Assembly (NCBI GenBank): GCA_963836435.1 | Contig: CAWIJI010000006.1 | Span: 62,956-126,955 of the forward strand | Direction of reading: 5' to 3' | Source of the DNA: an uncultured Acidobacteriota bacterium | GTDB lineage: Bacteria; Acidobacteriota; Terriglobia; 20CM-2-55-15 | DNA: 64,000 nt | In this document: one piece after another, positions 13,217 through 57,019 of the stretch | How positions within the stretch are numbered: position 1 is the stretch's first letter | How the letters are laid out: each line of letters begins with the position of its first letter | Program-made: the position numbers and the translations under genes | Notes under the pieces: model-generated | Told to the model about the DNA's origin: nothing | Seen by the model: the letters and a program-made list of their open reading frames with translations, nothing else | Databases searched by the model: none

Positions 13217-13657
13217 TTATTGACGGCGAACCGGAGCTGGCATATTGTAGATACAACGTATCTCTGCCTCGACAGTCTCCACAACCAAGTCCTCGCTGCG
13301 ATTGACGAATGATCGCGTTTTCGGATCGTAGCCCCCGAGCAGTTCTCCGATCCGGCGGTCTTGAAGGTTCGGGTCTTTTTCATAGTCGGACAGGCGTCCG
13401 CCCGGCAATCGTTCGAGCCGGTCGGTGGCAAAGGGAGGACGGGCCGCGTAACAGAGCAATCGTTCCAAACGAATCCGATCGTTTTGCGGGATAACAATGG
13501 CGGCATGGAGGGTTGAAACCGGCGGCGGCGGCGCACAACGAGAGGATCTCTCTTCGATCGCCTCCGGTTCAATTGCGCCTCCAGCCAGCGTGACGCGCCG
13601 GCCCAGCCCGGAAACGGGACGGCTCCAACGTGTCGCACTCGACGATTCTACAAGCAT
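13217..13657 (-). mobile_element. IS91-family transposase internal fragment
   Basis: The translation (...RVTLAGGAIEPEAIEERSS...NDRIRLERLLCYAARPPFATDRLERLPGGRL...) is near-identical to residues of the 45256..46521 IS91-family transposase. A second frame matches the neighbouring part of the same protein. Confidence 0.6.
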
Positions 13658-15966: not shown

Positions 15967-16108
15967 TGCCGGCGCGCAAAAGTTTGTCACGCAAACGCCT
16001 GCTTCCCGGACATTCGTTCCAAATCACATAGGGACAAACTGGCACTCCAAGTTTCCCTCCGCGCTTAGTCCAATCGATTTTTAGCTCACCGCCGCGGCAC
16101 TCTACAAT

Positions 16109-16205
16109 TCGGCCCAGGTATGATTCTTCCGTTTTTTTGCTTCTTTCCCGGACTCCGGGGCGTCAGGTGTTTCCTTGTCGGGGGACCTCGCTTCCGAAGG
16201 AGCCC
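16109..16205. repeat. about 95-bp fragment of the IS91-family transposase 3' coding region (solo copy)
   Basis: It is near-identical to 33417-33515 and 45447-45540. The latter lies inside the IS91 tnpA C-terminus, encoding ...KEARKRKNHTWAELIQRVF. Confidence 0.55.
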
Positions 16206-17516: not shown

Positions 17517-17600
17517 GGTTAAGTTGGGGTGCTTTACCCTGAAGGATGGGCTCCGAAGCGGGCCGGGCAGGCCGCTATTTTTCCGGACTGGCGCATCGGC
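17517..17600. repeat. structured about 80-bp repeat family, copy A
   Basis: The core gttaagttggggtgcttcaccc.gaaggatgg.ctccgaagcgggccgggcaggccgctattttccgg.ctgg contains hairpins GGGTGcttCACCC and GGCCgggcaGGCC. Four copies occur in the window. Confidence 0.6.
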
Positions 17601-17780: not shown

Positions 17781-18230
17781 TCACTCAACCCAGAGGACTT
17801 CCAGCCCGAGTAGTTGAGCGACATCTCTCTGGCGGGAATCGGAGGTGATGAATGGCAGACCTCTGGGAAATCGATCGAGCAAGACGGTGGCGCTCGCGAG
17901 ATGTATTGCGTCGAGAGCGCGGACGTCAAAATCCGCCACGTAGCGTTCGGCTTTCTCCAGAACAGATTCGGCCAGCTCTACCAGGCGGAACTTCAAACGA
18001 TGCTGAGAGAATCGCTTCGCCAACGCCGCATGCGATCTTTCATCAATGGCGCCGGATGTCAGATTGCGGCGGAACGCGGACGTCAATTCCACGCCCGCTA
18101 TCGACGACGTCATTACCAGGTGCGTGCGAACAAGTCGCCGGGCTTTATCGGATCCAGCTTCACGGACATAGTTCTTTGCAAGAACGCTGCTGTCAAAGTA
18201 GGCGGCCGATGGGGCTTTCTCATTGATCAC
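17781..18230 (-). CDS. vapC: type II toxin-antitoxin system VapC-family toxin (PIN domain)
   Basis: PIN signature (AYFDSSVLAKNY...LDAIHLASA...) and an overlap with the upstream antitoxin gene. Confidence 0.8.
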   Translation of the reverse strand: MINEKAPSAAYFDSSVLAKNYVREAGSDKARRLVRTHLVMTSSIAGVELTSAFRRNLTSGAIDERSHAALAKRFSQHRLKFRLVELAESVLEKAERYVADFDVRALDAIHLASATVLLDRFPRGLPFITSDSRQRDVAQLLGLEVLWVE

Positions 18231-18498
18231 GCAGTTCCCTCAAGGTTTTTGACAGCAACACGCCCTTCAAACTCAGGGGCTTCCATGAGTCACGGATGAG
18301 CCCAGCCTTCATGTTCGGTCTTAATAGGCCTTCCTGCTCAAGCTCCAGCAGAGTTTCTTCCTCCGAAGCCGCTTTCGAATATGGTTGAATTGTCGCGATA
18401 GGATTGCCTCTCTCCGTTAAAACAACAATTTTCCCCGCTTTGACCGCTTTAATGGCCTTGGAAAAACTCTGATTGGCTTCCCGTAGCCCCATTCTCAT
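18220..18498 (-). CDS. type II antitoxin (Phd/YefM-like) partner of VapC
   Basis: A 92-aa protein whose gene overlaps vapC by 11 nt. The N-terminal ...LREANQSFSKAIKAVKAGKIVVLTERGNPIATIQPY is typical of Phd/YefM-type antitoxins. Confidence 0.65.
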   Translation of the reverse strand: MRMGLREANQSFSKAIKAVKAGKIVVLTERGNPIATIQPYSKAASEEETLLELEQEGLLRPNMKAGLIRDSWKPLSLKGVLLSKTLRELRDQ

Positions 18499-19528: not shown

Positions 19529-19942
19529 TTAAACCTTTCCCCAGTCTTCCCAATCGAGCCCCTTCACGCGGCTGAACTCTCTCGCGTTTGCGGTTACGAG
19601 CGTCACCCTGTGGCGTAGCGCCTGCCCTGCCATCAACAAATCGTAAGCACCGATGGGGCGGCCTGCTGATTCCAAAGACGCACGCACTGCCCCAGCCGTC
19701 TTAGCGTCTTCTTCCTCGAAGTTCATCAAAACCATCGGCCCTGAAAAAAACGTTCGCAGTCGGTCACGGTTTTGTTCCTTTTGAGTGCTCTTTTCGGCTC
19801 CGTACCAGAGTTCGAAAGCAGCGATCGAGGATACGTGCACAATATCTCCCGTATTAATTGCCTTTTGAAACCGGCTGCGTACGTTGGCAGGCTTACCGTT
19901 AATTAAAGCGATACACGCATTCGTATCGAGGAGATACCTCAA
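19529..19942 (-). CDS. vapC: type II toxin-antitoxin system VapC-family toxin (PIN domain)
   Basis: Begins (M/L)[13 protein letters not shown] with a TTG start. Classic VapC acidic residues are present. Confidence 0.85.
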
Positions 19943-20178
19943 TCGAATATCTCACGACGTGGCGGCGCTGGTTGCTTGCGGTTCCCTTTCTTCATGAACT
20001 CGCCCTTGAATTGATCAAGTTTGCCGAACCATTGACGGACATCTGTCAGCTTCGGCTCAAGAAGTACTCCATTACCCACTTGGCGGATGAGAACCTCATC
20101 CCCTTCAAACCGAAACTCACGAGGGAGCCGAACAGCTTGGCTACGACCGTTTCGAAACAGTTTTGCAGTTTTCGACAC
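19939..20178 (-). CDS. vapB: VapB antitoxin (AbrB/MazE/SpoVT fold)
   Basis: ...[41 protein letters not shown]... overlapping the vapC start. The start is moved to the in-frame GTG (V17 of the ORF-track translation). Confidence 0.75.
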
Positions 20179-20385
20179 AGGCACTCCTATGGTCGATATA
20201 TACCACAAATATATACCAGAACGCATCTTTGAGCAGCAAGTCGACCGAACTTTGAAGCATCGCGCCTCGCCCGACTTCTGGGCTTGTTTCTCCGCATTAC
20301 CTCAACACATCCAAGAACAGGCGCGAAAGAATTTCGAATTACTCAAACAGGATCTTCGGGCTGTGCCACCGCGTCTTTGGTAACT

Positions 20386-20700: not shown

Positions 20701-20739
20701 CGGCTTGTAGAAACCGGGATTTCGGTGTCGTATAAGAGC

Positions 20740-20830
20740 GATTACGTTAAGTTGGGGTGCATCACCCTGAAGGATGGTCTCCGAGGCGGGCCGGGCAGGC
20801 CGCTATTTTCCGGGCTGGCGGCCGAACAAC
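20740..20830. repeat. structured repeat family, copy B
   Basis: Same core as copy A, with the upstream extension tgtcgtataagagcgattac shared with copy D. Confidence 0.6.
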
Positions 20831-20854
20831 CGATACTCCCCGCGATCATCCGTG

Positions 20855-21370
20855 ATCCTGGGAGCCGGAACGACAAAGGCTGTCGCGGCCGACACTGCCA
20901 GAAGGCTGAACAATGGCCCACACGCTCGCATTGGCCAGCAAATTTCCGTCCGCATCACGCACGCGGCCTGAAATCGCCCCGCCACGAACCCACGACAGGG
21001 AGACATCGGCGGCCGGCGGCCGCGGATCGACCGTCACCGTTTGAGTAACGAAGGCCGGATAGACTCCGTTTGAGAGCGCGCCGAAATAACCTTCCAGCTC
21101 CGTCCCGAGGCCGCGGCGGCCTCATGTCGGTGTTCCGCGAGAATTGGCGGATCCAGACACAATGTGGCACGATGTCCCCCACGAAGGAGGGATCTCCCTG
21201 AACTCCAACTCCGGCTCTAATTGCTGAAAGGGTTCCGCCTCACCGAAAAGAATACGCCGTCCCCCAAAGATCGACGGTTCCGTCTGGGCCACTCTATAAC
21301 GGAACACCCGTTATACCGCCCCATCGGTCATACTCTCTCGACACCGCGGTTAAACCGCTTATCCGTCCTA
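20855..21370. repeat. segmental duplication copy 1 (about 510 bp, near-identical to 24233-24745)
   Basis: Aligns base-for-base with 24233-24745 apart from a few mismatches. It contains a CarboxypepD_reg N-terminal remnant (MTVDPRPPAADVSLSWVRGGAISGRVRDADGN). Confidence 0.75.
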
Positions 21371-21382
21371 CAGGCTCCTAGA

Positions 21383-22932
21383 CTAGAAGGCCGTAACGTC
21401 AATCGACCGTCGACCGAGTTCCTCAATTCTCACAGCCTGACCTTTATCTTCGAAGTCTCTAAGAAACAGCTCATTGCGGTAAGCGGCTCCTGCAAGTTCA
21501 CTCCATGCGAACAAGTGATAGGAACCGGGCGCTATACCGCGAAGCTGATACCGCCCGTTGATATCGCTGACAATTGACCGATACAAAACCCCTGCCGATC
21601 GAAGCGGAGCATCAGGCACTAGGGCAACAACAGCGTTTGATAGTTTCTCACCGCTCGAGTTGCGTACCAGCCCCTCGATGACACTGCCCGGCGTGCGAAG
21701 CACGATCTTGAGTTCGGTATCCGTCGTCAACTGCAGACCAGCCGCACGCACATCTTGTCTGTCAGCCTGCGCAGATTCGACATAGGCATCCGGCGGCATA
21801 CCGACAATCTCCAGTTCATAGAGCGCCGGCGAGAATAGCCCGCCAAAGCAACTATAATTCGTGAAAGCTCCGACTCTTTCGGCATGTGGGGCGTCCGTGT
21901 AGAGCTTGCACAGCAGGTCAGGAGGGTCGGAATGGTTGCCGGACGCATCCTCTAATTCAAGGCCCCCTGTTATGCGTAACCCGGGTGACACAGGTATATC
22001 TACCTTGACGTCAGCGTTTCCCACATCGAACGTGGCATGACCGTAATATAGCTCGGCGCTGCCCGCCACGGCGAAAACCTGATCATACCGCCCAAGAGTC
22101 AGTTCCACTGAGGTGCGACCTGGCCCCAGGGTCAGGTCCAGGTTGGGCAAAGCGACCAAAAACGAGCGAGCGATAGTTTCTCCCAGATCTTTTCCATCCG
22201 TGTCGAGAAAACGAAAACTAACCTTCACTGGATTCTGCACCGGCGCAGGCAGCGTGATAGTTGAGAGGCGCATCTCCTCGCCGGCATTTACATGGATGGG
22301 CTGCGCCAGACTTTCGTCCTCTGTTCCCGGATAAAACAGGCGCACCCGACCGACGCGCCCAGAAACGTAGTAGTCTCCTGGCTGTAATCCATAAAGGCGA
22401 TAGGTTCCGCGATCATCCATGCGCCCAAACACTCCGGAGTGTCGGTCACCACCGGCACGCTAATAAGCTTTCGTTTGCCGTGTTCGTCATAGCCGGAACG
22501 AAACAAGTCGACCTTCGCTTGCGTGCCTGGAAACACTTTGCCATTGGAATCCATGACCTGTCCGGTAATGACGGCCTCTCGGCTCATCCGAAGTTCCACA
22601 TCCTGAACAGGTTCAGAAGAAAGTTCCACCCACACCCCCGGTTCACTAGGGAACTTTAGGGCCGCGGGCCTCGAATAAACCATACCGTTACGGGCGGGCC
22701 TGAAGAAGTACCGACCGGGAGGAACGTCAACCGTAAAGTGTCCAGCGGAATCCGTCAGAGCCTGGTAACTGTACCCCGATGAAACAGCGGAGACAGACAC
22801 GCCTTCGAGCGGCAGACCTTTGTCGGCCTCGACAACGACTCCTTGAACTGAACGGATGGTTTGCGCGAAGTTGGATCGCGGCAGCATGAAAATCGCAGTC
22901 GTCAACGTAACTATGAAAATAACTAACCGCAA
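21383..22932 (-). pseudogene. secreted CarboxypepD_reg-like protein (paralog of 424..2010) disrupted by a frameshift near 22400-22440
   Basis: The N-terminal ORF 22288..22932 has a signal peptide and the motif ...DLFRSGYDEHGKRKLISVP.... The C-terminal ORF 21383..22432 has ...DDRGTYRLYGLQPGDYYVSGRV.... The two are collinear with the 424..2010 protein but lie in different frames. Confidence 0.6.
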
Positions 22933-22994
22933 ACTTCCTCCTGGTCACATGGGCTACAATTCACGTTGGTGCCGCCAACTTGAGCGTCTAAATC

Positions 22995-24235
22995 AACACG
23001 ATAAAATCTTAAATGTACTTTCCAAACCGGACAGGCGTGAGTTTGGCGCGGTCGCAACTAACTTCATCATAGAGATCAACTTGTCTAACATCTCATGGAT
23101 CACACTATCCGTGAATTTATTGGTATGGAATGCTCCTCCAACATTTATTGAGCCGTCCCTGAAATCAAGACACAAGATCCTTAAGGGGCGCGGAAACTCA
23201 GGAAGGTGATCAAGCAACCCCATGCGGCTAATGGTTAGATCATTAACTACATCGGGATTCTCGTTCGTCATCAATTCACATGTTACGACCGGGGTTGAGA
23301 ACTCTTGGATAACGTCTGTTTTCGCCGGGTCGACTGCCGTATTATGAGGTCGCTTAGCATACTCCATGGCATCTCTTGAAAAATACTTGCCTCGGATATG
23401 GCATCCTTAACTCGCACGGTAATGTCTCCTAAGGTTTCACGCGATGAAATATCGACTCCCAGGACGCGGAAAGTCGAAAAATCGCCAATCAACAATTCAG
23501 TATGCCTCTGATCGCGATTTGCAAAATAGACGCCAAACGTGGACTCGTGGAATTGCCGACCAAAGATGAAATAGACAGACCGTAGCGGTGGCGAGCACGG
23601 TATACAAAGTCGACTTGTTGCCTGCAATGGCGTTGCGAAGATTCTCGCAGTCGAAGCTTGAAAGTGCTTTCCGTATGACTCTCCCACTCCCATTTCGGTC
23701 TGCTGGTCTTGAATAGAAAGACCGAATCCGGTCGCCCCTACTATGGTCGGTGATCGCCTGATTTCGTTTCGCAGCTGGGCTAGAGGTAGCGCCTCTTGGC
23801 TGATTGAAGGAAACAATATACCGCTTCGGGCCACTTCCGGAATCGATACAATGGGATCAGGATTTTGGAGCGATCGTAACTCAACGATTCTCGCGGCAAG
23901 TGTCTTGATAGTTGGCGTTTTTGAGAATTGCGCCGGGCTCACACTCACGGCAAAGTGTTCTTCCACGAGGTGAAGAAGTTGCGTGAGAAGCAAAGAGTCG
24001 CCCTCAAGTTCCCAGAACCCGTCGTCGCCCCCCAGTTGATCCTTCTTCAGTATTTCTTCCCAGATTCGCGCAAGCTTGAACTCTTCAGGCGTACTACAAG
24101 GTTTGTAGGCCGCATCCAAATTGGGGCGACTCCGACTCTCGGCAGGCAAGGCCGCTGTATTCACCTTGCCATTAAAACCTCGGGGGATCTCGTTCAGAAC
24201 AATGAAGGAAGCGGGAATCATGTGACTTGGAAGTC
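22995..24235 (-). pseudogene. decayed NRPS fragment: adenylation-domain A10 motif, a PCP (thiolation) domain, and condensation-domain pieces
   Basis: A10-like motif LPSHMIPASFIVLNEIPRGFNGKVNTAALP. PCP core DDGFWELEGDSLLLTQL with the Ser attachment site. A C-domain segment FGVYFANRDQRHTELLIGDFSTFRVLGVDIS...ASIFQEMPWSML. The C-domain C-terminus (HTNKFTDSVIHEMLDKL) lies in another frame, so the gene has internal deletions and frameshifts. Confidence 0.55.
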
Positions 24236-24745
24236 TGGGAGCCGGAACGACAAAGGCTGTCGCGGCCGACACTGCCAGAAGGCTGAACAATGGCCCACAC
24301 GCTCGCATTGGCCAGCAATTTCCGTCCGCATCACGCACGCGGCCTGAAATCGCCCCGCCACGAACCCACGACAGGGAGACATCGGCGGCCGGCGGCCGCG
24401 GATGGACCGTCACCGTTTGAGTAACGAAGGCCGGATAGACTCCGTTTGAGAGCGCGCCGAAATAACCTTCCAGTTCCGTCCCGAGGCCGCGGCGGCCTCA
24501 TGTCGGTGTTCCGCGAGAATTGGCGGATCCAGACACAATGTCGCACGATGTCCCCCACGAAGGAGGGATCTCCCTGAACTCCAACTCCGGCTCTAATTGC
24601 TGAAAGGGTTCCGCCTCACCGAAAAGAATACGCCGTCCCCCAAAGATCGACGGTTCCGTCTGGGCCACTCTATAACGGAACACCCGTTATACCGCCCCAT
24701 CGGTCATACTCTCGACACCGCGGTTAAACCGCTTAGACATCGGCC
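24233..24745. repeat. segmental duplication copy 2 (see 20855-21370)
   Basis: Near-identical to 20855-21370. Here its CarboxypepD remnant is fused in-frame to the NRPS fragment. Confidence 0.75.
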
Positions 24746-24786: not shown

Positions 24787-25326
24787 CTAGGGAATAACCT
24801 CAGCAGCGAGCAGGTTCTCGAGCACGGCGGTTTCACTGATTCCCTCTTTACGTGCCAGTGCTCGCAGCCGCTCAATCGAGCGTGGCGTCAAGCGGAATGT
24901 CTTGGGTACTTTTTTTTCGCCCACCGGTTTCACACGGCGATCACTCAACGGAATGTCCGCCCAAAGCCTGATCTTTGCGTAAGGAACTCCCCTGAATTCG
25001 TTTCCGTCGGCTTTGGAAGCCCGGAGATTGGCGACAACATGCGCCAGATCCTTGTGTCGTTCGGGGTCCAGATCGAAGTGGCGGCCCAGGCGAAGAACCG
25101 CAGCGGGCAGGACTTCCAGAATTCGAGGCTCCACATGCTCCCCCGCCCACAACGCATCATCGAGCCTCAGTCGCTTGTTCGGTTCCGGGCGCAGAGGCAG
25201 GTTCGTCTTGAGAAGACCCTTGGCAACAAGGAACCCCATCGTGTCCAGATAACGCGGATCTTTCCGATTGTTCTCGTCCGTTTTGGCCCGCTTTCGAATC
25301 TGGGCCAGAAGCGCCGCTCGATTCAT
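24787..25326 (-). CDS. hypothetical protein with C-terminal ribbon-helix-helix-like segment
   Basis: The C-terminus KKVPKTFRLTPRSIERLRALARKEGISETAVLENLLAAE resembles an RHH/CopG-like segment. The gene is translationally coupled (ATGA) to the upstream gene. Confidence 0.4.
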   Translation of the reverse strand: MNRAALLAQIRKRAKTDENNRKDPRYLDTMGFLVAKGLLKTNLPLRPEPNKRLRLDDALWAGEHVEPRILEVLPAAVLRLGRHFDLDPERHKDLAHVVANLRASKADGNEFRGVPYAKIRLWADIPLSDRRVKPVGEKKVPKTFRLTPRSIERLRALARKEGISETAVLENLLAAEVIP

Positions 25327-25823
25327 GCGAACTCCTCCAACGTGCCTCCATGTTTGACGATCCGATCCACCAGCGAAGGGAATTGATTCGAAGCAATTGC
25401 CTGACGCAGCAGTTGACGATTCTTCTGTGGCGCCTTCACAGCCTTGCTGACCAGCGCCGACTCGGGATCTAGAACTTCGACTGTCAGGTGTGGAAGGTCC
25501 ATCAATAACAAAAACTTGGCGCCATCCGGAATCCAGATGAGATGACTGTCCTCGTCATAGACAAGCCCGTCGTTTCTCAAGAGCACCTTCAATTCTTCTT
25601 TGACCAGGTAATCCATGACGAGCTCTGCATCAACGTCTACGGTTTGCGTCAAGGCGAGAGAAACCGACTCCTGAACCAGCAAACTAATTTGCCCGAGAAG
25701 CCGAATCCTTGACTTCGGCAAAGGAACCAATCCGTCCATCCGCAGTTTGTGGTTCATCGCCTCGATTCGAGCATCCAAGGCTTGAAACAGTGAAAGAAAG
25801 CGGTCCCTGTGCGACTCCATCAT
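25323..25823 (-). CDS. hypothetical protein (possible nucleotidyltransferase-fold), first gene of a two-gene module
   Basis: A 166-aa protein with a ...LTQTVDVDAELVMDYLV... segment that is weakly reminiscent of minimal nucleotidyltransferase motifs. No confident family assignment. Confidence 0.35.
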   Translation of the reverse strand: MMESHRDRFLSLFQALDARIEAMNHKLRMDGLVPLPKSRIRLLGQISLLVQESVSLALTQTVDVDAELVMDYLVKEELKVLLRNDGLVYDEDSHLIWIPDGAKFLLLMDLPHLTVEVLDPESALVSKAVKAPQKNRQLLRQAIASNQFPSLVDRIVKHGGTLEEFA

Positions 25824-26900: not shown

Positions 26901-28301
26901 CTACCTGGCGCGCGCGGCGCACGCCTCACCGACCAGCCAGGTTCGCCAACCCTGAACAAGGCCCTGGATTTCGGAGTCGCCGGGGCCCAGAGGGCGATTG
27001 GCACGACGACAGGCGCGATCGCGGAGGGCCGCCGGTTCAATGTGCCACGTGTAGTATCGCGCGAGAGGCTCGTTAGAGTCGGATGCCAGCGTGACGAGGT
27101 CGCCGTCGGGAGTGAACCGGTTGGCAAGCGTTTCTCTCGGGATTGCCCGCTGGGTGACATCTTCCAGCGAGCCGATGACTTCGTGGGTTGCACGACTCTG
27201 GAGCGTGAGCGTGGTTTTCAGTTCGCAGCCGGGCGCGAGAACTGCGTCTTCACACCCGGATGATTGCTCCGACACCGTGGCGGTAATCTGCCCATTCGGG
27301 CTGACAGCTTCCTTTTCGGCAGCTTCCGAGGCGACAACGGCTTCGGCCTTTTCGTCAGACGCGGCCCGCTCAACCAGCGGCGCGCCCTTAACGTCCCACA
27401 CCATGACCTTGCCCTGGGCGTCCGCAGTTGCAAGCATGCTGTTGTCCGCACTGAATTGCAGAAACTGCGGCGCTCCGGCATGGCCCGTGAGGCGCAGAGG
27501 CTTGAGCAGGCCAAGTTGGAAACGGAGGTCCTCTTCCTCGATGAGGTTGTCTCCTTCGCGAATCAGTTGGAAGAGATTCCGGCGCTCCGAGACATTGGTC
27601 AGGAGAACATCCGTTCCATCCTGCGATGCGAGATACGCCGCGTCAAAACTCAGCTTGTGCAGGTAACCGTTGACCGGTGCTGTCAGGACCTGGAGCGGCC
27701 GGCGCTCCGGGACGCCCAGGGACAAGTCCCATTCCGATGTCGTGCTGTCCGCCATGATCGCAATCAGGAACTGCCCGGAGGCGTCGAAAGCGACGTCCTG
27801 GCTTTCCTGGTAGTAGAACTGCCGGGTATTGCAGTCGGCCGTATCGACGACGTAGATCCGGCCGGATCCCGTGGCCAGCGCAAGGCGTCGTCCGTCCGCC
27901 GAGAAGCGTATCGCCAGGATCGGGGAATTCCAGATATCGCCGCAGCGGCGTCCCGCGCCCCTGGCGAACAGCTTGAACTCGCTACTGGGCCGGTCACCGT
28001 CACGTAGTGCGACAACATAGAGCCCTCCATGGCGGCTTACCGCGACACCGGTGATGGTTTGGTTGCCACTATAGAGTTGCTCGGGCTCGGGGGAGGCCTG
28101 GGCGAGATCGAGCGAAACCAGCTTGTGCTCGCGTTCGGTCGAAAGAACGGCTAAAAGGCGTTCCGTTGCGGGATAGAAGTGGAGGTCGGTGACTTGTCCC
28201 GAATGGAGCGCGATCGGGGCGCGGCTCAAACGATTCGCTTCGAGGTCGTAGACCAGGATCGACGGTTCCGCGCATCCTGCAGGCCTGCAGCCCGCGACGG
28301 C
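26901..28301 (-). pseudogene. WD40 beta-propeller portion of an IS-split TIR-TM-WD40 gene
   Basis: WD40 blades are present (e.g. GHAGAPQFLQFSADNSMLATADAQGKVMVWDV). The open frame runs up to the IS1182 left inverted repeat at 28302 with no start codon. It is collinear and apparently in frame with the 29979..30905 fragment on the far side of the IS. Confidence 0.6.
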
Positions 28302-29978
28302 TAGGAGCCTGTAGGGGATAGATTTCTAGATTTCGATCAAAAACGGGACCAGTGTTGACGGGCGGGCAGGTAAAAGACGAAGGCATGACCAAATGCTTTG
28401 TTGATGACGAAATCGATCAGATATTGATGATGCCGCCGTCGCTGCACGATTGGCTCCCGGAAGACCATTTGGCGCGATTCGTGGCGGATTTGGTGCCGAG
28501 CCTAGATCTGTCGGCGTTCTACGCTTCCTATGAAGAGAAAGATGGACGAGGCAATGCTGCCTATCATCCGGTGATGATGGTGCGGTTGCTGGTCTATGGC
28601 TACTGCATCGGAGTCGTGAGTTCGCGGCAGATCGAGAAACGGACATACGAGGATGTGGCGTTCCGGTATTTGAGCGCGGATGAACATCCGCACTACACGA
28701 CGATCAACGAATTTCGGAAACGGCATTTGAAAGCATTGGAGGGATTGTTCCTGCAGGTGCTGGAGCTATGTCAGGCAGCGGGTCTGGTGAAGATGGGGCA
28801 TGTGGCCCTGGACGGGACGAAGAAGCAGGCGAACGCCAGCAAGCACAAGGCGATGAGCTATGGGCGGATGGGAGAAGCGGAAGAAAGGCTCAGAGCGCAG
28901 GTGAAGGAACTGCTCGATCGCGCTGAAGCCGTCGACGCGGCCGAAGATGAAATGGAGCGGCAAGGTTACAGCGACAAGTTGCCTGCGGAATTGGCGCGGC
29001 GGGAGAGCCGGTTGAAAAAAATCGCCGAGGCGAAGGCGGCGCTGGAAGCGGAAGCGCGGCGGAAAGCGGAAGAGAAGAAAGCTCAAGCCGAGGCGCGAAT
29101 TGCCGAGCGGCAGCAGCAGGAGCAGGAGACGGGAAAGAAGATCGGCGGGCGGGCGCCGCAGATTCCCGATCCGGAGCAGGCCAAGCCAGAGGATTGCGCG
29201 CAACGCAATTTCACCGATCCTGACAGCCGGATTATGGTCGACGGAGCGAACAAAGGCAGCTTCGTACAAGCCTACAACGCGCAGATCGCGGTGGATGCCG
29301 AAGCGCAAATCATCGTTGCCGCCGACGTCACGCAGGAAGTCAACGACAAGCAGCAATTGGCGCCGATGTTCGAGCAGGTCGAAAAGAATACAGGAGCCAA
29401 ACCAGTGGCGGGCAGCGCCGATAATGGTTATTGGGCTCCAGAACAAATTGCCGACAAGCACGTCGAAGGCATCGATCTCCACATAGCCACCGGGCGGGAT
29501 AAGCATGGAGCATCGGAGCAAACCGCGCCGTCAGCGGAGTCCGCAAAAGCGGCGACAGCTCTGGAGCAGATGAAGCAGAAACTGCAAACGGAGGCGGGGC
29601 GCGCCATTTACAAAATGCGCAAGGCGATCGTCGAACCAGTGTTTGGCCAGATCAAGGAATGCCGTCATTTTCGACGCTTCAGTCTTCGAGGCTTGGAAAA
29701 CGTCAGAGCGGAGTGGAAACTTGTCTGCGCGACACACAACCTTCTGAAGTTATTTCGATCGGGACGCGGATTTCAGGCTGCGGCGGCATGAAGAGGATGC
29801 AGGAACCTCAGAAAACATGATGAGACCGAACTTCTCTCGCCAGTCTCCCCGTGTTCTCGTGCGTCAAGCCTCAAACGCAATGTCGACGGTTCCCGAACGG
29901 CGACCTGCGGAATTTTTCGACACGGAAAATTTCGAATTTTGGGAACGGCGACCTGCCTTATCCCCTACAGGCTCCTAG
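28302..29978 (+). mobile_element. IS1182-family (IS5-like) insertion sequence with about 20-bp terminal inverted repeats
   Basis: Perfect inverted repeats CTAGGAGCCTGTAGGGGATA at 28302-28321 and its reverse complement at 29959-29978. Between them lies a single transposase gene. Confidence 0.75.
28385..29791 (+). CDS. IS1182-family transposase (DDE)
   Basis: N-terminal MTKCFVDDEIDQILMMPPSLHDWLPEDHLARFV... and the DDE region (...VALDGTKKQANASKHKAMSY...FVQAYNAQIAVDAEAQII...) are typical of IS1182-family transposases. The start is taken at M12 of the ORF-track translation. Confidence 0.8.
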   Translation: MTKCFVDDEIDQILMMPPSLHDWLPEDHLARFVADLVPSLDLSAFYASYEEKDGRGNAAYHPVMMVRLLVYGYCIGVVSSRQIEKRTYEDVAFRYLSADEHPHYTTINEFRKRHLKALEGLFLQVLELCQAAGLVKMGHVALDGTKKQANASKHKAMSYGRMGEAEERLRAQVKELLDRAEAVDAAEDEMERQGYSDKLPAELARRESRLKKIAEAKAALEAEARRKAEEKKAQAEARIAERQQQEQETGKKIGGRAPQIPDPEQAKPEDCAQRNFTDPDSRIMVDGANKGSFVQAYNAQIAVDAEAQIIVAADVTQEVNDKQQLAPMFEQVEKNTGAKPVAGSADNGYWAPEQIADKHVEGIDLHIATGRDKHGASEQTAPSAESAKAATALEQMKQKLQTEAGRAIYKMRKAIVEPVFGQIKECRHFRRFSLRGLENVRAEWKLVCATHNLLKLFRSGRGFQAAAA

Positions 29979-30905
29979 TTTCTTTCCGTCGCCCCTAAGC
30001 GTCAGGGCGCGGACTTCGGACAGGTCATGAAAGCTGGTCGCAAGATGTTCCGTGGCGTTGACTGCGGCCAGCAGACTGCCGTAAGCCGCCGCAGTCGGCG
30101 AGGTGTTATAGGCTGCAACGCTCAACAGCAGCGCCGTGTCGGGCGCACTGCGCAACGCGACCGTGGCTTGTTGGGCCAGGCGCGCCGACAACTCGATGCG
30201 AGTGGCATTGATGCCGGTCCTGATGAGGCTGAAGAGAACCATCGCGGCTACCAGAGCGGCCGTGCCCACCGCAAGCCGTTGCCGGCGGCGTCTTTGTCTA
30301 TCCCGCTGCCAGAGTTCGTCGAATTCGACATCGATAATTCGCGCGATGAGCTTCAGCAGCGCCTTGCGGCGCGCAACGCGCGGCCGGCTGTCCTCGCGCA
30401 GGAGGTCGGCCGCAACGGGCTCGACGCGCTTGTCCGTGATCTGGCCTGCCGCATCGACTTCATAGCGGAGCGCTTTGGGGAAACATTCCTGCGCTTCGTC
30501 GCCCGGATGATCCGAGGCGTGAGGCGCCCCGCCGACGATCAGTGCCAGGATATCCGTTTCCCGGCCGGATGCCTTGAACTTCACGACCTCCTTGTTGACC
30601 CACGAGTCAGGCCGCGCGGAGTTCGGCGAACAGAGGACGATCAGGTTGCGCGCCTGGTCCAGTGCATGGCCCAGCGCTGCTTCCAGATTGGGGTCCGAAC
30701 GTAATTCGTCGCGATCGCGGAATACAGGTTCCAGGCGCTTCGGCACGGGGCCCCGACCGGTTTGCCGGCCCACGAGGTTCGAGGGAATGCGGTAGGTCTC
30801 CAGCGCCCCGATCAACCATTTCGCGTGCTTCTGGTCCCGGCTGCTGTAGCTGATGAACGCCCAGTATTTGCGGGTCATCCTGCTGCGGGAATCTTCCGAA
30901 GACAT
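29979..30905 (-). pseudogene. TIR domain plus transmembrane helix: N-terminal part of the IS-split TIR-TM-WD40 gene
   Basis: Bacterial TIR signature (KYWAFISYSSRDQKHAKWLIGALE...LEPVFRDRDEL...LIVLCSPNSARPDSWVNKEV). One TM helix follows (LAVGTAALVAAMVLFSLI). The reading frame then runs straight into the IS1182 right inverted repeat. Confidence 0.65.
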
Positions 30906-31086
30906 GGTCAGATACCTTCGTTCAGATCAGAAAATACGTCCGGATACCGGTTTGCTGAAAACCTCGAAGCGTAACTATCACCCTAAGAACTCATCCGCGC
31001 AGATTTGAAGCCTTCAAACTATCAATTCAGGCGGACTAAATGGAAGTTCGAAGAAATTTAGTAATGAGGCTCGCCGCAACCCACAC

Positions 31087-33237
31087 GTGTGTGAAATCCA
31101 TCATCCTGCGTTTATCAACGTCCCGCAAATTGGCTATGATGTCCACTCCATGCAACAGGCGCTGCTGAAATCAGCCCGTGAATGCCGGTTTTTTCGCGCC
31201 AGCCTTTCCCGGCTTGCGGAAGAACTGCCGGCTGACGACGAGGCGCTCGACGAACTGATTGCTGCGGCGGTTGCCGAGCGGGACAATGACGCTTTTGTCC
31301 GGATCGTTTTCGCGGCTCTGGGCGCAGGACGGCGCGTCGATGCCCGCCACCTCGAGCAGGGTGCTCTTCTTTTTGATGGTCCCGACCAGTTGTCGGCCGC
31401 CGCTCTGCATGCGTCGGGAGATGTTGCGGGATCCCTGATCGCGGCCGTCCAACGCGAGGGTTTGGGCGATGAGCGGGCCGCGGGAGCCCTGCTCCTGGCG
31501 GGTGTGTGGTGCAAGGACCATGGTGTTGAACCGGTTCCATCCGAATTGATCGCGCAGGCTCGGATCCGGGCGCGCCGATTTGGGCGAAGCCTTTTGGTGG
31601 ATCTTCAGATCGCGCTGCTGTCCGACTTGCTTCACGACGAAGGACTCACCACGCTGCTCCAGTCGCTGGGTGTTGCCCCGCCTCCAGCCGCCCTGGCAAA
31701 GAGCTTCCTCGATGGCTTCGTCGACGCCATGAGGGCATCGCCTCTGGCCGTTGTTCCTGAGCGGCCGGGCCCGATTATCCATTCCGGATTCACTTTGCGG
31801 CGGGCGGTCGCGCGAGTTGGACGGAACGAACCCTGCCCGTGTGGAAGCGGCAAGAAATACAAGAAGTGCTGCATGGAAAGGGACGAGGAACGGCTACAGG
31901 CATCTTCGTCAATCGCGGGTATGACCGTCGGCGAACTTCGCGAGCAACGAGAGCGTTTTCTGACCAGTGACGAACTGCTTCAGATGCGTTCCCATGAACT
32001 GGCCCGTCTCGATCCGGCGAAGGTGGCGGCATCTCTCCGGCCGCTTCTGATCAACCGCCTGTTGCTCTTCGGCGAGCGCGAAGCCGCAGTGGAGTTATTC
32101 GAGAAGACTGGCGTACCGGAGGAACTACGCGGTCATTGGCTGGATTGCATCGACACCGTGGTCGCCGCAGGCCGGAAAGATCTGCTGGCACGCCTCCAGC
32201 CGCTTCGTGACCCCTCCGAACTCCAATCCGAGGACTTCCCCTTGGCTGCGAAACTTCTCACGGCAGATCCGGCCGACGTCCTTCACCTGATCGAAAAGGC
32301 TGCCCGGACGCGGCTGGAGCGTGCGGATCAAAGCGACGCCATCGATCTGGCGTATGCACTCCTGGACAGCCCATGGCGCGCGTTGGGGATCCTGGTGGCG
32401 CGAGGATTGATCGCCCACTGCGGATTGTTTGACGCCGAGACCCTGCTGGACGCGATACTGGAAACACGGGATAAGCTGCATGTGCCTCCGGGCGATCCGA
32501 TTCAGGCGGTATTCGACGCGCGGCTCGAAACCTCGCTCGAAGCCCATCGCGATTCCACTGAGCTTCAGGACGCGCACGAAAAACTCCTTGCCAGCGGCGA
32601 GGAACTGAACGCTGCTCGATCGAAGCTGGCGCGCCTGCAGGCCGAACTGGATAAGGCCGAACGCGAGAAGAAGGATCGAGAGCAGCAGACCGTCCCGCTA
32701 TCCTCGGTCAATTCCGCTCCGGTCCAGCCCCTCATCGACGAATCGGCCCTTCAGGAGTTAAGACGCCGCGTCGCTTTCCTGCGCGACGAACTGCAGGAGA
32801 GGCACAGGGAACGGAATCAACTGAGAGGCGACTTGAATCTGGCCCTTGACCGGCTTGAAGAACTGAGCCGAAAAGAACCGGTTCCCGTGGCCGTGGACGA
32901 AATCGAGGACTCGGAGACGGACTGGAGCGACGAGGCGGAACCATCGGGAACACAACCCGTTCGCATCCCCGAGTTTTCCTCGAAGTTCAGGTCATCGCTC
33001 GAGGAGTTGCCCGCACGGATCGTTCGCCAGGCCATGTTATCGATCGGACGGATGGCGGCCGGGGAAAGCGGCGCGTTCGTGGGAATCAAACGATTGACGA
33101 GAAGTCGTGATATCGTCCGGCAGCGGATAGCGGACCATCGCCTCCTGTTCCGCCTTCACCCCCAAGCGATCGAACTCCTGGCTCTGATCCCCCGTCGCGA
33201 CCTCGAGCGAAGAATCAAAAGCCTGATCTCAAGCTGA
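31087..33237 (+). CDS. large SEC-C-motif, coiled-coil protein with C-terminal RelE/ParE-like toxin fold
   Basis: SEC-C metal-binding motif [17 protein letters not shown] at about residue 250. A long helical and coiled-coil region (...[24 protein letters not shown]...[21 protein letters not shown]). An acidic linker. A C-terminal roughly 90 aa ([81 protein letters not shown]) matching the ParE/RelE pattern. The start may instead be the Met at 31150. Confidence 0.5.
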
Positions 33238-33416
33238 GAACGACTATTGCTTTGAAGGCGGCTGCTGAAGGTTTTGGAGTTCGATTCCCTCACACGCGTG
33301 ACCAGAGCCTGAAAAAGCTGTTGGAGATGGGGAAGGTCGCTGCATCACCGCGCTTGAGACGGGTTCAGGACCTAGAATCCCGATGTCGATGTCCGAGCAG
33401 CGATCCGTTGGATCAA

Positions 33417-33515
33417 TTCGGCCCAAGTATGATTCTTCCGTTTTCTTGCTTCTTTCCCGGACTCCGGGGCGCCAGGTGTTTCCTTGTCGGGGGACCTCGC
33501 TTCCGAGCGTCAGTT
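33417..33515. repeat. about 95-bp IS91-transposase 3' fragment (solo copy)
   Basis: Near-identical to 16109-16205 and 45447-45540. Confidence 0.55.
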
Positions 33516-33549
33516 ATTCTCTTTGGCAGGCTTCGTGGGAGGGATTCCG

Positions 33550-34252
33550 ATGAAATACGCCAACCTCGGTGGCACCGGTATCAGCGTGTCGCGCATCTGC
33601 CTCGGCATGATGACGTATGGTTCCAGGCAATGGCGCGACTGGGTTCTGGAGTACCCGGAGGCGAAACCGTTCGTCACACGCGCGCTCGAAGCCGGCGTCA
33701 ATTTCTTTGACACGGCGGACGTCTATTCCAACGGCGCGTCGGAGGAAGTATTGGGCCGCGCACTGCGGGAGATCGGCGTGGACCGTAACGACGTCGTCAT
33801 CGCGACGAAATGCAACTTCGGTGCAGAACCACTACAACCTGCTGTACCGCGAAGAGGAGCGGGAAATGATTCCGCTGTGCGCCGATCAGAAGGTGGGGCT
33901 GATCCCGTGGAGTCCTCTTGCCCGCGGATACCTGGCACGTGATCGCGGGACGCTGAAGGCGACCACGCGTGCGAACTCCGATGAGTTCACGAAGGTCCTG
34001 TATGACCCGGAGTTCGATGGCGCCCTCATCCAGCGCAATGCCGAAACGGCGGCGCGGCTGGGCGTCAAGCCGGCGCAGACGGCGCTCGCCTGGCTGCTCG
34101 CCAAACCCGGTGTGGTCGCCCCGATTGTCGGCGCTTCCAAGCTCCCGCATCTGGATGACGCGATCGCCGCCGTCGATCTGGAACTCTCCGCAGACGACGT
34201 TAAACAACTTGAATCGCTGTACGCGCCGCGCGCCGTTGCCGGACATTCGTAG
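33550..34252 (+). pseudogene. aldo/keto reductase with internal deletion and frameshift
   Basis: AKR N-terminus (MKYANLGGTGISVSRICLGMMTYG...NFFDTADVYSNGASEEVLGRAL...VIATK). It then jumps at about 33820 into a different frame carrying the AKR C-terminal half (QNHYNLLYREEERE...LIPWSPLARGYL...IVGASKLPHLDDAI). The central catalytic part is missing. Confidence 0.55.
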
Positions 34253-34373: not shown

Positions 34374-34529
34374 TTACGGTTTCTTCGCGACAACCTTCCC
34401 GTTTTCCCAGACGATGAGCCGCGTGCCGTGCATGCGGGCTGCTTTTCTGGCAGCGCGAGGGACGCGTTTCATTGCCCTGGCAACGGATTCGAAGAACCGT
34501 TTGTCTTCAGCAGACATCTTCTTTTTCAT
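34374..34529 (-). CDS. 51-aa basic protein translationally coupled downstream of the zeta-like ATPase gene
   Basis: MKKKMSAEDKRFFESVARAMKRVPRAARKAARMHGTRLIVWENGKVVAKKP. Its ATG overlaps the ATPase stop (ATGA). Coordinates were derived by hand. Confidence 0.3.
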   Translation of the reverse strand: MKKKMSAEDKRFFESVARAMKRVPRAARKAARMHGTRLIVWENGKVVAKKP

Positions 34530-35053
34530 GTGCGGCCTTGATCGATCAGCTTCGGTGCTCCGGCATTATCGTAAACCATCCAGGCATCGGCCAGGGGGCG
34601 ATAAACGTCTACAAAGTTGTCCCAGCTTCGCTGAAATCTGCGAACGACATCTTCTGCAGCGACATTGTGGCCTCCCTGTTGAACCCGTGCAGCAATGCGC
34701 CGGAGTGCTACTTGAGGTGAGGGAATCGTCAGGTAGATGATTTCGACGCGATATCCTTGAGCCTTCCAGCGCTGCAGACGAAACGCATAGGTCCGTCCGC
34801 TCAACGTGCTTTCGAAGGCGAAGCTGGCGCCACTCGTCGCCAGGCGATCCATCTCTCGAAGGAATAACCGGCCCGCCGCGACGGCCGCCAGTTCAGGGCG
34901 CAGGGGGGAAAGCCCCCCTGCAATCAGATCGGCGTTAACAAAGTGAACGATATTTGATTCCCGCGTGAGGTACTCGCGGGCAAAGGTTGTCTTGCCCGCT
35001 CCATTTGGACCCGCAATGACAAGACATCGCGGTTGTCCATTTCCCTTGGACAT
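34526..35053 (-). CDS. zeta-toxin-like / AAA_33 P-loop kinase-fold ATPase
   Basis: Walker A GPNGAGKTT near the N-terminus. A 175-aa protein with overall similarity to zeta toxin / UNAG-kinase-fold proteins. Confidence 0.55.
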   Translation of the reverse strand: MSKGNGQPRCLVIAGPNGAGKTTFAREYLTRESNIVHFVNADLIAGGLSPLRPELAAVAAGRLFLREMDRLATSGASFAFESTLSGRTYAFRLQRWKAQGYRVEIIYLTIPSPQVALRRIAARVQQGGHNVAAEDVVRRFQRSWDNFVDVYRPLADAWMVYDNAGAPKLIDQGRT

Positions 35054-38367: not shown

Positions 38368-38747
38368 ACACTATAACCGCCAGCCGGGATCCTGCAATGT
38401 TATTTTTATAACGGATGTGTTGTCACGCCGCTGCTTAACTCGGTTTACCTTTCACCGCCCGCAATCCCCCAGATCCGGCGCCGCGATGGCACCCTCCGAA
38501 CATCCTGAGCCTCGGGAGTAAGTGTCGCATAAAGCAGAACGTTTTTAGCGTAGCGACGCGGCGAGTCAAGATCAGCATGGAAAGCTCCTTTGCGAATTGG
38601 AATTTGCTGCGATCAGCAGCCTCCATGGTTTCGCAAGGAACTTGTACGAGGAAGAACTCCGTTAGATTCTCATGACGCGGGAAACTGGCAGGCCCATCGA
38701 CAACCCATCGGCCAGCAACCTACCGCAGCAGCGGTTTAGTCCAAGAG

Positions 38748-38830
38748 CGATTACGTTAAGTTGGGGTGCTTCACCCTTGAAGGATGGTCTCCGAAGCGGG
38801 CCGGGCAGGCCGCTATTTTCCGGGCTGGGC
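38748..38830. repeat. structured repeat family, copy C
   Basis: Same core as copies A, B and D. Confidence 0.6.
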
Positions 38831-44513: not shown

Positions 44514-45092
44514 ATGCAGAACGAAGTTCAACCACTGTCCCCGACCCCTCTTTCGGCCTTGGTTGAGGCGGGACGGAGTGAGGGCGAGCATAGCGAGACC
44601 GAGCGGAGTGCCGCCTCAACCAAAGCCGGCGCCGACGCGGCCGGCGTGGCCCGGCCCGATCCGGAGGTCGTCGCGAAAGCAAAGCGGCGGCGATTCACCG
44701 CCAAGTACAAGCAGCAGGTTTTGGCAAAGGCCGACGCGGCGGCGTCTGACCCTGGCGCCATCGGAGCGCTGTTGCGGCGCGAGAGACTCTACTCCTCGCA
44801 CCTGGTAGCGTGGCGTCGACAACGGGACGCCAGCACTCGACAAGGCCTCGAGCCCCGGAGACGCGGCCCGAAGCCGAAGCGGAATCCCATGGCTGAACAA
44901 ACGGGGGATTTGATCGGAAAAATCCGCGTCATGAAGGTTAGGGTGATGGTCGCGATGGCGATCACGGTCGGCCTTCGCCGCGGAGAATTGATCGGCCTTT
45001 GTTGGAGGCATCTCGACCTGAACATAGGAGTTTTAAGAGACCGGTCGGGCGTATGCTCCGATGCGCGATCCCGGGTTTTCAGTGTCGTATAA
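44514..45092 (+). mobile_element. composite remnant: IS3-family OrfA-like transposase N-terminal fragment fused to a tyrosine-integrase fragment
   Basis: ...PDPEVVAKAKRRRFTAKYKQQVLAKADAAASDPGAIGALLRRERLYSSHLVAWRRQRDAS... is IS3/IS911 OrfA-like. The tail ...ITVGLRRGELIGLCWRHLDLNIGVLRDRSG... resembles a tyrosine-recombinase catalytic-domain segment and runs into the 55-bp direct repeat. Confidence 0.5.
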
Positions 45093-45094
45093 GA

Positions 45095-45180
45095 GCGATT
45101 ACGTTAAGTTGGGGTGCTTCACCCGGAAGGATGGTCTCCGAAGCGGGCCGGGCAGGCCACTATTTTCCGGGCTGGCGGCG
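45095..45180. repeat. structured repeat family, copy D (immediately 3' of the IS91 tnpA stop)
   Basis: Same core as copies A-C. It sits between the integrase fragment and the IS91 transposase stop at 45256, so it may be the IS91 oriIS-side terminus. Confidence 0.55.
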
Positions 45181-45255
45181 AAAACAAGAGCCGTGGTGTT
45201 TGTTTTTTCGCTCTGGCGTGCAGACGAATCCTTCGGTCGCGCAGAAGCGGCCAAG

Positions 45256-46521
45256 TCAGGCCCAGTCGAAAGTGCTGGCGAGGTCGGCGCTGCGCGCCGC
45301 GGGAGCGAGCGGCGGCGGTCGGCAGGGCAAGCCGAGGTGGTCAAGAATCTTCCGGGTGGCGGCCGGCGGATGGATCGGGGAAATCAGGCGCAGCTTGCCG
45401 CCGCATTTTCCGCAGACGGTCGCATCCGCTGCGAACACGCGTTGGATCAATTCGGCCCAAGTATGATTCTTCCGTTTTCTTGCTTCTTTCCCGGACTCCG
45501 GGGCGCCAGGTGTTTCCTTGTCGGGGGACCTCGCTTCCGAAGGAGCGGATTTGGCCTCCTCAAAAGAAAGTGTGGCCGCGGTCGTCTCCGAACTGGATTC
45601 GGCGGCAGGCACGATCTGGGCCCGCCATTTCGCGGCGGGGCCAAGCACGCCGGAGAACCGAATCAAATGAGCGCGGGGCGTGGGGATCAGCGCCGCAAGA
45701 CGTTCAATAAATTCCAGCGGGGTAAATACGGCGTGCGTCGTGCCGTCACGCCACGGCGTCTTCAGGCGGTAGCAGAGGCGTCCGTCCGGCAATCGTTCGA
45801 GCCGGTCGGTGGCAAAGGGAGGACGGGCCGCGTAACGGAGCAATCGCTCCAAACGAATCCGATTGTTTTGCGGGACAACAACGGCGGCATGGAGGTTGAA
45901 ACCGTCGACGGCGGCGCACAGCGGAGAGGATCTCTCTTCGATCGCCTCCGGTTCAATTGCGCCTCCAGCCAGCGTGACGCGCCGGCCGGCGTTCGGGCCG
46001 TCAGCGATCCGGTTCGAGACGGAAGCCGCATAAAGTCCCGCCAGCCAGGGTTGCTCCCGCGACAGCGGGTCTTCTTCACCACAAGATTCTCCGAACCGGC
46101 GCTGGACCAGGGTCGTGATTCGAGAAGCCAGCGTCTCGGTCAGTTGCCGAATTTCGCTGTCCTCAATGCGCCTCAACGGATAAAAACGCGGACGGCCGTC
46201 CACATCCGGAGCATATACCCCATCGATGCAAACCATGTGGATATGAACATTAAGATTGAGGCTCCCTCCATAGCGCTGTACGAACGAGACCGCGCCGCAT
46301 TGCGTTTGATGGATGCCGCACGCCAATATGCCGCATTCGAGGACCCCGCGAAGTTCGAGTTCCACGAATCTGGGCACATCTCTCCCCTTCTCTTTCTGCC
46401 GAGCCAGAAACGTTTCGAGATTCTCCTGAAGCAGGCGGTAGACGAGCGATTGCCCGGGATCACGCGGGCGATACTCTCCGGCCGGATTGTTTCTCGCACC
46501 ACATCCGGCGTGGTTCAACAC
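45256..46521 (-). CDS. IS91-family (rolling-circle, HUH) transposase, possibly internally deleted
   Basis: N-terminal zinc-finger region (...RPRDPGQSLVYRLLQENLETFLARQKE...LECGILACG...). HUH region (LNLNVHIHMVCIDGVY). C-terminal ...HTWAELIQRVFAADATVCGKCGGKLRLISPIHPPAATRKILDHLGLP typical of IS91 TnpA. The 491-aa ORF on the opposite strand is taken as an antisense artefact. Confidence 0.7.
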   Translation of the reverse strand: MLNHAGCGARNNPAGEYRPRDPGQSLVYRLLQENLETFLARQKEKGRDVPRFVELELRGVLECGILACGIHQTQCGAVSFVQRYGGSLNLNVHIHMVCIDGVYAPDVDGRPRFYPLRRIEDSEIRQLTETLASRITTLVQRRFGESCGEEDPLSREQPWLAGLYAASVSNRIADGPNAGRRVTLAGGAIEPEAIEERSSPLCAAVDGFNLHAAVVVPQNNRIRLERLLRYAARPPFATDRLERLPDGRLCYRLKTPWRDGTTHAVFTPLEFIERLAALIPTPRAHLIRFSGVLGPAAKWRAQIVPAAESSSETTAATLSFEEAKSAPSEARSPDKETPGAPESGKEARKRKNHTWAELIQRVFAADATVCGKCGGKLRLISPIHPPAATRKILDHLGLPCRPPPLAPAARSADLASTFDWA

Positions 46522-56960: not shown

Positions 56961-57019
56961 TGCGATCCGATCGATTGGCGCTGGTGGCGAATCCCCTCCC
57001 CCGATCCTCACCCGGGCCT

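Follow-up and report, generated by a model that had tools for sequence, protein, structure and literature searches.

A probable non-ribosomal peptide synthetase relic abutting a duplicated CarboxypepD_reg scrap in an Acidobacteriota genome

Introduction

How does a piece of a non-ribosomal peptide synthetase (NRPS) come to be fused to a scrap of a CarboxypepD_reg gene, and can the resulting open reading frame still do anything? The question is raised by a minus-strand ORF at 23283..24413 of the window (by which we mean the whole 64-kb stretch of DNA analysed here, from an uncultured soil member of the Acidobacteriota). According to PMC9723581, Acidobacteriota hold large BGC repertoires and some of their lineages are rich in NRPS/PKS clusters, so that an NRPS scrap in a genome of this phylum is in itself unsurprising. 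An earlier note, made from the letters of the window, had read the ORF as a decayed NRPS remnant joined to a duplicated CarboxypepD_reg remnant. Here, we map what is left of the synthetase, locate the joint, and weigh the ways in which this arrangement may have arisen.

The fragment is the tail of one NRPS module

The ORF at 23283..24413 is present as described and encodes 376 aa. Its sole significant Pfam match is PP-binding (PF00550; aa 113-176; E=4.8e-12, 46 bits against a gathering cut-off of 20.8). From LPSHMIP onward, the translation aligns residue by residue to the A10-PCP region of the solved NRPSs LgrA, PvdL, TycC and SrfA-C, with LgrA 652-784 aligned to this stretch at a whole-protein E=8e-24. 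NCBIfam NRPS models likewise match the fragment (E down to 8e-20), at scores ~fifty times under their full-length cut-offs, as expected because only a fragment is there to be matched. The Pfam models AMP-binding and AMP-binding_C gave no match to the fragment at E<=1.

For a finer domain map, we relied on a custom module profile of 600 positions, made from 244 A10-to-C-end segments of the multi-modular NRPSs recovered in the exhaustive search described below (61 of them aligned) and run against all stop-to-stop segments of 20.6-25 kb; tblastn with individual NRPS modules yields the same map. In sum, window 24233→22996, read on the minus strand, is the tail of a single module, in which A10 is followed by a complete PCP and by what remains of a condensation domain, namely a stub with C1 and the C-terminal lobe. 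Profile positions 1-148 match 24233-23787 in the frame of the long ORF (E=3.5e-34), taking in the NGK of A10, the PCP serine and C1. The first part of this match, at 24144..24233, is an adenylation tail whose A10 motif, LPSHMIPASFIVLNEIPRGFNGKVNTAALP, has kept its lysine; the A domain that should precede it is absent, and of a complete adenylation domain (A1-A10), A10 alone is present. A complete PCP, or thiolation domain, follows at 23886..24077, identified by its PF00550 match and the PDB alignments. Its attachment serine, in LEGDSLLL, aligns to the GGDS/GGHS of solved PCPs, the first glycine of GGxS having become E. The PCP-C linker and the start of the condensation domain, with its C1 region SISQEALPLAQL, occupy 23787..23885 (module profile to position 148; tblastn).

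Next on the minus strand comes a deletion scar. Between 23786 and 23716, both module profile and tblastn find a mere 71 nt in place of ~200 profile positions (149-348, comprising C2, the catalytic C3 motif HHxxxDG, and C4), amounting to a loss of ~530 bp, and the HHxxxD motif is absent from all six frames. Instead of a condensation domain with HHxxxDG in a single frame, there is a C-lobe spread over alternating frames in three pieces. The first of these, in a second frame at 23554..23715, holds the helix region before C5 (…NLRNAIAGNKSTLYTVLATATVCLFHLW…; profile 349-402, E=7e-4; tblastn). The second, back in the long-ORF frame at 23343..23540, carries C5 (IGDFSTF) and C6 (FQEMPWS) and matches profile positions 407-472 (E=9e-6; tblastn E ~1e-6); the stretch from FANRDQRHTELLIGDFSTF to FQEMPWS, which had been assigned to a C domain, belongs to this piece and is indeed a part of one. 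The third, at 22993..23342 and shifted in frame once more, contains the end of the domain and the stop codon at 22993-22995 (profile 523-572 at 23169-23020, E=9e-3).

The C-terminus of the C domain had been placed in another frame, at 22993..23367. Taken alone, this ORF gives a weak match to Pfam Condensation (PF00668; E=0.03, 13.4 bits against 30.6, profile 399-445), and no natural ORF rises above the threshold of that model. A frame-joined conceptual translation reaches 41 bits (E=1.4e-10), over the C-terminal lobe only (profile 238-445 of 456). The earlier note had set an absence of PP-binding and condensation matches in any frame against its own reading; what we find is a PP-binding match at 46 bits and the frame-joined condensation match at 41 bits. 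The order A10-PCP-C is thus upheld by Pfam PP-binding, the PDB and NCBIfam alignments and the module profile. The decay is likewise real, and heavier than had been noted: besides the 5′ truncation, the lesions include one large internal deletion, with which HHxxxDG was lost, and at least three frameshifts instead of one.

No further A, C, PCP, E or TE similarity was found in the 64 kb. NRPS similarity is limited to 24242-23020, in agreement with the statement that no intact NRPS exists in the window; all NRPS protein alignments begin at 24233-24242, and nothing upstream matches. Compared to the canonical A-PCP-C boundary, as known from LgrA (PDB 6mfz), PvdL and tyrocidine synthetase, the fragment shows the same order of elements: LPxxMIP...NGK (A10), the four-helix region of the PCP with its serine, C1, the helix ahead of C5, C5 itself, C6 and the strand region at the C-terminus. 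Unlike a canonical module, it lacks A1-A9, C2-C4 including HHxxxDG, and a downstream A or TE domain, it contains at least three frameshifts, and its identity to any known NRPS is only 30-40%. In sequence, then, the fragment is like an NRPS module boundary, yet it cannot work as one, because everything upstream of A10 is missing, ~530 bp with the catalytic motif have been deleted, and the C-lobe is frameshifted. We consider it very probable that the fragment is a non-functional relic, namely the last 1.24 kb of one NRPS module, lying in an island-like, pseudogene-rich Acidobacteriota stretch.

The A10-PCP part (447 bp) is free of frameshifts and stops, and the PCP scores as an intact domain. 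Four lesions would all fall into the C part by chance with p ~0.17, which is not significant; their confinement to this part is therefore no evidence of selection. Purifying selection on the A10-PCP part is conceivable.

The 5′ break coincides with the end of a direct repeat

Where exactly was the synthetase cut? On the minus strand, a repeat copy that we call R′ ends at 24235 and NRPS similarity begins at 24233/24234, so that the 5′ break of the NRPS lies exactly where R′ ends. This upstream copy (24235..24735, minus strand) and its downstream counterpart R (20858..21361, minus strand) form a direct repeat of 504 bp that is 98.8% identical, the differences being four substitutions, one 2-bp GA slip and one 1-bp T indel; relative to R, R′ bears the 2-bp GA indel and a 1-bp deletion near 24321. 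The proposed fusion of the NRPS remnant to a duplicated CarboxypepD_reg remnant is hence confirmed, and the repeat has the marks of a recent segmental duplication: same orientation, high identity, and flanks of its own on either copy that are confirmed in reads.

In each copy, ~320 bp without coding signal precede a scrap from the interior of a CarboxypepD_reg-family gene. The first ~320 bp (21023-21361 and 24399-24735), which start with the perfect 13-nt palindrome GCGGTTTAACCGC, contain no ORF and match neither the CarboxypepD family profile nor any Rfam family. This family profile, made from eight intact homologues of the neighbouring gene X, places its positions 107-137 at 21022-20930 in R and positions 107-136 at 24398-24309 in R′. 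Its positions 174-188 are found at 20853-20809, just past the end of R and in a frame that differs from that of the part in R. The segment in question, Z (20806..20857, minus strand; ITDDRGEYRLFG), is also supported by tblastn, at 73% identity to X, and stops after ~35 bp at a short interspersed repeat. Accordingly, R, as judged by repeat alignment and family profile, is the copy that is still joined to the original continuation of the scrap.

Along the minus strand, the elements follow one another in the order U (ORF166/ORF179, 25823-24787), R′, NRPS fragment, X, R and Z. Since the scrap domain extends beyond R into Z (…AFVVPAPR|ITDDRGEYRLFG) and keeps the spacing that is found in X, R-Z is the original arrangement and R′|NRPS is a derived, illegitimate junction. 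Moreover, both copies require the same frame change between profile positions 137 and 174, so the CarboxypepD scrap was frameshifted, and thus a pseudogene, already before its duplication. The earlier note had spoken of a CarboxypepD-like N-terminal remnant: the family homology holds, by custom profile and by tblastn against X, but the piece is internal (profile 107-137) rather than N-terminal, and Pfam is blind to it.

Both junctions are found in independent contigs

A repeat of this length could lead an assembler astray, two of the differences between R and R′ are indels of the slippage type, and several genes of the window appear frameshifted. One might therefore suspect an assembly or sequencing artefact, in the form of a chimeric join at the repeat or of long-read indel errors in an otherwise intact gene. 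We deem this extremely improbable, as independent k-mer contigs from run ERR11718635 show both junctions and every frameshift at 100% identity. The Logan contig L002 equals window 24264-21308 without a mismatch: from its start, 30 bp inside R′, it runs over the R′|NRPS joint, proceeds through the fragment with all of its lesions, the X frameshift and the X|R joint, and ends 54 bp into R. A second one, L001, equals 26603-24684, likewise at 100% identity, covers U and ends 52 bp into R′. Each of the two carries the repeat variant specific to its copy, and the copy-specific R/R′ variants are each tied to their own upstream flank. In addition, the frameshift sites that we inspected lie outside homopolymer runs, and indel errors could produce neither the 5′ truncation at A10 nor the deletion of ~530 bp. 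With contigs this short, the support concerns the junctions themselves, long-range order (chromosomal versus tandem or circular) being beyond their reach.

A chimeric reading frame created by a 1-bp deletion

What, then, is the long ORF? In the minus-strand 376-codon frame at 23283..24413, deposited publicly as a 341-aa protein (P0001), CarboxypepD scrap comes first and NRPS fragment second. Following the 1-bp deletion in R′ near 24321, the scrap is read out of frame, and the ORF continues straight into the fragment. By the same deletion, the GTG/ATG starts further upstream come into frame with the NRPS fragment, and the 376-codon ORF exists only because of it. Pfam gave no match on the N-terminal 60 residues, with the threshold of CarboxypepD_reg (PF13620) not reached; the homology of this N-terminal part to the family emerges from the custom profile (E ~1e-4) and from tblastn against gene X (E=6e-4).

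Neither candidate start of the chimeric ORF is preceded by a Shine-Dalgarno sequence. A promoter/terminator scan returned nothing above shuffled expectation, and no promoter-like site was seen upstream on the minus strand. No function is expected of the chimeric ORF or of the NRPS fragment, because there is no A core, no catalytic C motif, no continuous frame, no partner genes, no RBS and no promoter-like site above background. The 376-codon ORF would thus be accidental and probably lacks a useful product.

Might it nonetheless be a domesticated stand-alone carrier protein, its PCP being expressed by way of the duplicated DNA upstream and charged in trans by enzymes whose genes lie elsewhere? 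The PCP is complete and retains its serine, the 376-codon frame is open, and the public annotation lists a protein. As in the single-domain carrier proteins of PF00550, PP-binding is also the only intact domain recognised in the chimeric ORF. The ORF, however, is four times longer than such carriers, being padded with out-of-frame and remnant sequence, and has no partner enzymes nearby. Its open frame crosses out-of-frame C-domain and CarboxypepD DNA, both starts are devoid of a Shine-Dalgarno sequence and the upstream minus strand of a promoter-like site, GGxS has degraded to EGDS, homologues of the same architecture were not found, and the window offers no A, C, TE or PPTase gene. This makes a working carrier protein very unlikely. 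It is highly improbable, too, that R′-[NRPS fragment-X]-R constitutes a still-active unit, looping out as a circle or amplifying, in which the chimeric ORF has become a new carrier protein by virtue of the frame-restoring 1-bp deletion.

Our preferred reading of a non-functional relic has a practical side. The deposited 341-aa PP-binding 'protein' is then the product of a pseudogene, and BGC surveys of Acidobacteriota should count it neither as a carrier protein nor as a sign of NRPS capacity. The locus also provides a clean, small example of how a duplication joint and a 1-bp deletion together give rise to a chimeric ORF.

Gene X belongs to the same family as the duplicated scrap

A 60-bp spacer separates the stop codon of the NRPS fragment (22993-22995) from gene X (21383..22932, minus strand), a multi-domain CarboxypepD_reg gene that is full-length except for one frameshift at ~22438-22441. 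X covers positions 9-533 of the family profile with a single change of frame (9-166 and 167-533), and its two halves score 43.8 and 42.2 bits with Pfam CarboxypepD_reg (PF13620; cut-off 32.3). The gene retains a signal peptide and a good Shine-Dalgarno sequence; its frameshift lies outside any homopolymer and recurs in the independent Logan contig. X is a very young pseudogene, or possibly harbours a real recoding site.

Intact homologues of X measure 524-563 aa and are 58-60% identical to it, and an intact paralogue of 528 aa is located at 424-2010 of the window. In the one context that we saw, the nearest homologue (58% identity) is the last of three tandem CarboxypepD_reg genes, with no NRPS around it. 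X and the R+Z scrap are members of one family, as are the secreted CarboxypepD_reg proteins that form tandem arrays in Acidobacteriota. The present locus departs from such arrays through the frameshift in X and through its downstream member, of which ~80 codons in two frames are left and a part is duplicated.

Foreign composition and a tentative history

Where did the NRPS come from? The stretch had been described as lower in GC, and the fragment is indeed at 0.49, against 0.59 for the window; its GC3 is 0.47-0.54, against 0.70-0.75 in core genes, with X intermediate at 0.55. A word-indexed search of 5.8 billion proteins returned the fragment itself and A10-PCP matches of at most 40% identity, and neither a close intact paralogue nor a donor; the idea that a paralogue of more than 90% identity might be found elsewhere thus received no support at the protein level. 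An exhaustive HMMER search of 1.84 billion representatives yielded giant NRPSs only, at 30-39% identity, which score by way of their repeated modules. With its low GC and GC3 and no relative above ~40%, the fragment is compositionally foreign and without a sampled donor, and on these grounds of sequence we take the data to point to horizontally acquired DNA rather than to a long-resident gene.

We found no related genome with the ancestral layout: neither GTDB species representatives, searched with a 32-mer of the repeat, nor JGI metagenome contigs, searched with a 24-mer of it, gave a match, and the context of the nearest X homologue does not show this layout either. As for the host, the DUF885 gene at 60.6 kb has counterparts of 80-85% identity in MAGs of uncultured Acidobacteriota, the closest of these MAGs being MFD05567.bin.1.209 and MFD09730.bin.2.47 (84-85% in DUF885), and the window proteins that we checked are singletons at 90% identity, the transposase excepted.

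For the repeat architecture, we infer the following order of events. An NRPS gene, probably acquired horizontally, would originally have been situated upstream of X. A duplication with a novel joint, by which the end of R became linked to NRPS sequence immediately ahead of A10, would then have generated a partial second copy, fragment-X-R, and the upstream copy together with the remaining NRPS would later have been lost, leaving U-R′. The same layout may also have been reached by a Campbell-type insertion, through homology in R, of a circle carrying R-fragment-X, or by capture of a stray foreign fragment. From then on, the partial NRPS copy would never have been functional and may have decayed at about the rate at which the repeat copies diverged. 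The fragment has at least four lesions in 1.24 kb, versus two indels in the 2x504 bp of the repeat pair; these similar indel loads are compatible with decay that started when the joint was formed.

It is conceivable, if rather unlikely, that the fragment never belonged to a complete NRPS gene in this lineage, and that a short foreign piece, either filler from break repair or a decayed piece of a mobile element, was joined to R′. A GC content 10 points under that of the host, the want of any further NRPS piece in 64 kb, relatives that nowhere exceed ~40% identity and adjoining DNA that is a patchwork of unrelated gene scraps would all fit such an origin. On the other hand, the fragment stops where a C domain naturally ends, its stop codon lies 60 bp ahead of the intact RBS and start of X, and this resembles a native gene boundary more than a random break; the direct-repeat architecture, too, is more simply derived from a duplication that involved a longer resident gene. 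The two accounts diverge in history only, and agree on present function.

Gene relics at recombination junctions of bacterial islands are commonplace. Like other gene remnants at duplication or illegitimate-recombination junctions in islands, the NRPS fragment is a truncated gene at a direct repeat, is foreign in composition and is surrounded by TA modules, an IS and pseudogenes. There is no essential difference from such remnants, and it is the pairing of an NRPS tail with a CarboxypepD_reg scrap that makes a new instance. The locus is an ordinary gene relic of a familiar kind, and represents a new instance rather than a new kind.

Surrounding genes and repeats

Applied to the surrounding ORFs, Pfam detects toxin-antitoxin, transposase, TIR, WD40 and CarboxypepD_reg families only, and neither the genes for tailoring, transport, TE or PPTase nor the additional modules that an NRPS cluster would have. 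The stretch from 17 to 35 kb harbours two PIN/antitoxin pairs, an IS5-like DDE transposase, a TIR and a WD40 gene, a zeta-toxin-like kinase and an aldo-keto reductase pseudogene; the locus marks this stretch as a recombination-prone, horizontally influenced region. The window contains no tRNA gene that might serve as the boundary of a mobile element.

Just downstream of the NRPS fragment, at 17781-18498 and 19529-20226, two type II toxin-antitoxin pairs, the one of PIN and Phd/YefM and the other of PIN and a MazE/AbrB-like antitoxin, are located in a stretch of lower GC (0.49-0.55). A run of genes with an island or defence flavour occupies 26901-33237 and 34526-35053, comprising WD40, transposase, TIR, a 716-aa SEC-C-motif protein and the zeta-toxin-like P-loop kinase. 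Its IS5-like DDE transposase (28352-29791) has an identical protein recorded on a different contig of 150 kb, and its 90% cluster numbers 83 members; the TIR-domain protein is encoded at 29958-30905. In the aldo-keto reductase pseudogene at 33484-34252, Pfam profile positions 1-79 and 157-290 lie in different frames, with ~77 positions missing, and the pseudogene adjoins a copy of an interspersed repeat at 33406-33506.

Directly upstream of R′, at 24787-25823, two overlapping minus-strand ORFs of 166 and 179 aa are singletons in a collection of 15 billion proteins. They match no Pfam or NCBIfam family, save that the C-terminus of the second gives a hint of RHH below the threshold. The pair may be an unrecognised two-gene module.

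Several families of short repeats are dispersed over the window. The one that truncates scrap Z is an element of 75-115 bp with the core GTTAAGTTGGGGTGCTTCACCCTGAAGGATGGTCTCCGAAGCGGGCCGGGCAGGCCGCTATTTTCCGGGCTGG, present in four copies that are 92-97% identical (17518-17593, 20714-20830, 38743-38828 and 45071-45185), all in the same orientation and at or overlapping the 3′ ends of genes. It has no Rfam match, folds no better than shuffled sequences, and exact copies of its core were not found among JGI metagenome contigs. Its GTTAAGT box invited a reading as an integron attC site, which we rejected, as the element lacks a matching inverse box, is not palindromic overall and does not show the spacing of an array. 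Rfam likewise returned no credible structured RNA on 17-27 kb.

A second family, of ~100 bp, has copies of 97-100% identity at 16105-16203, 33406-33506 and 45440-45546, and a further interspersed repeat of ~212 bp occurs at 13392-13603 and 45776-45987 with 95% identity. Finally, downstream of a Ser/Thr kinase gene (57020-59713), positions 56452-56963 are densely filled with nested direct and inverted GC-rich repeats, with units of 32-73 nt and several perfect hairpins, in what looks like a cluster of stacked REP-like palindromic elements.
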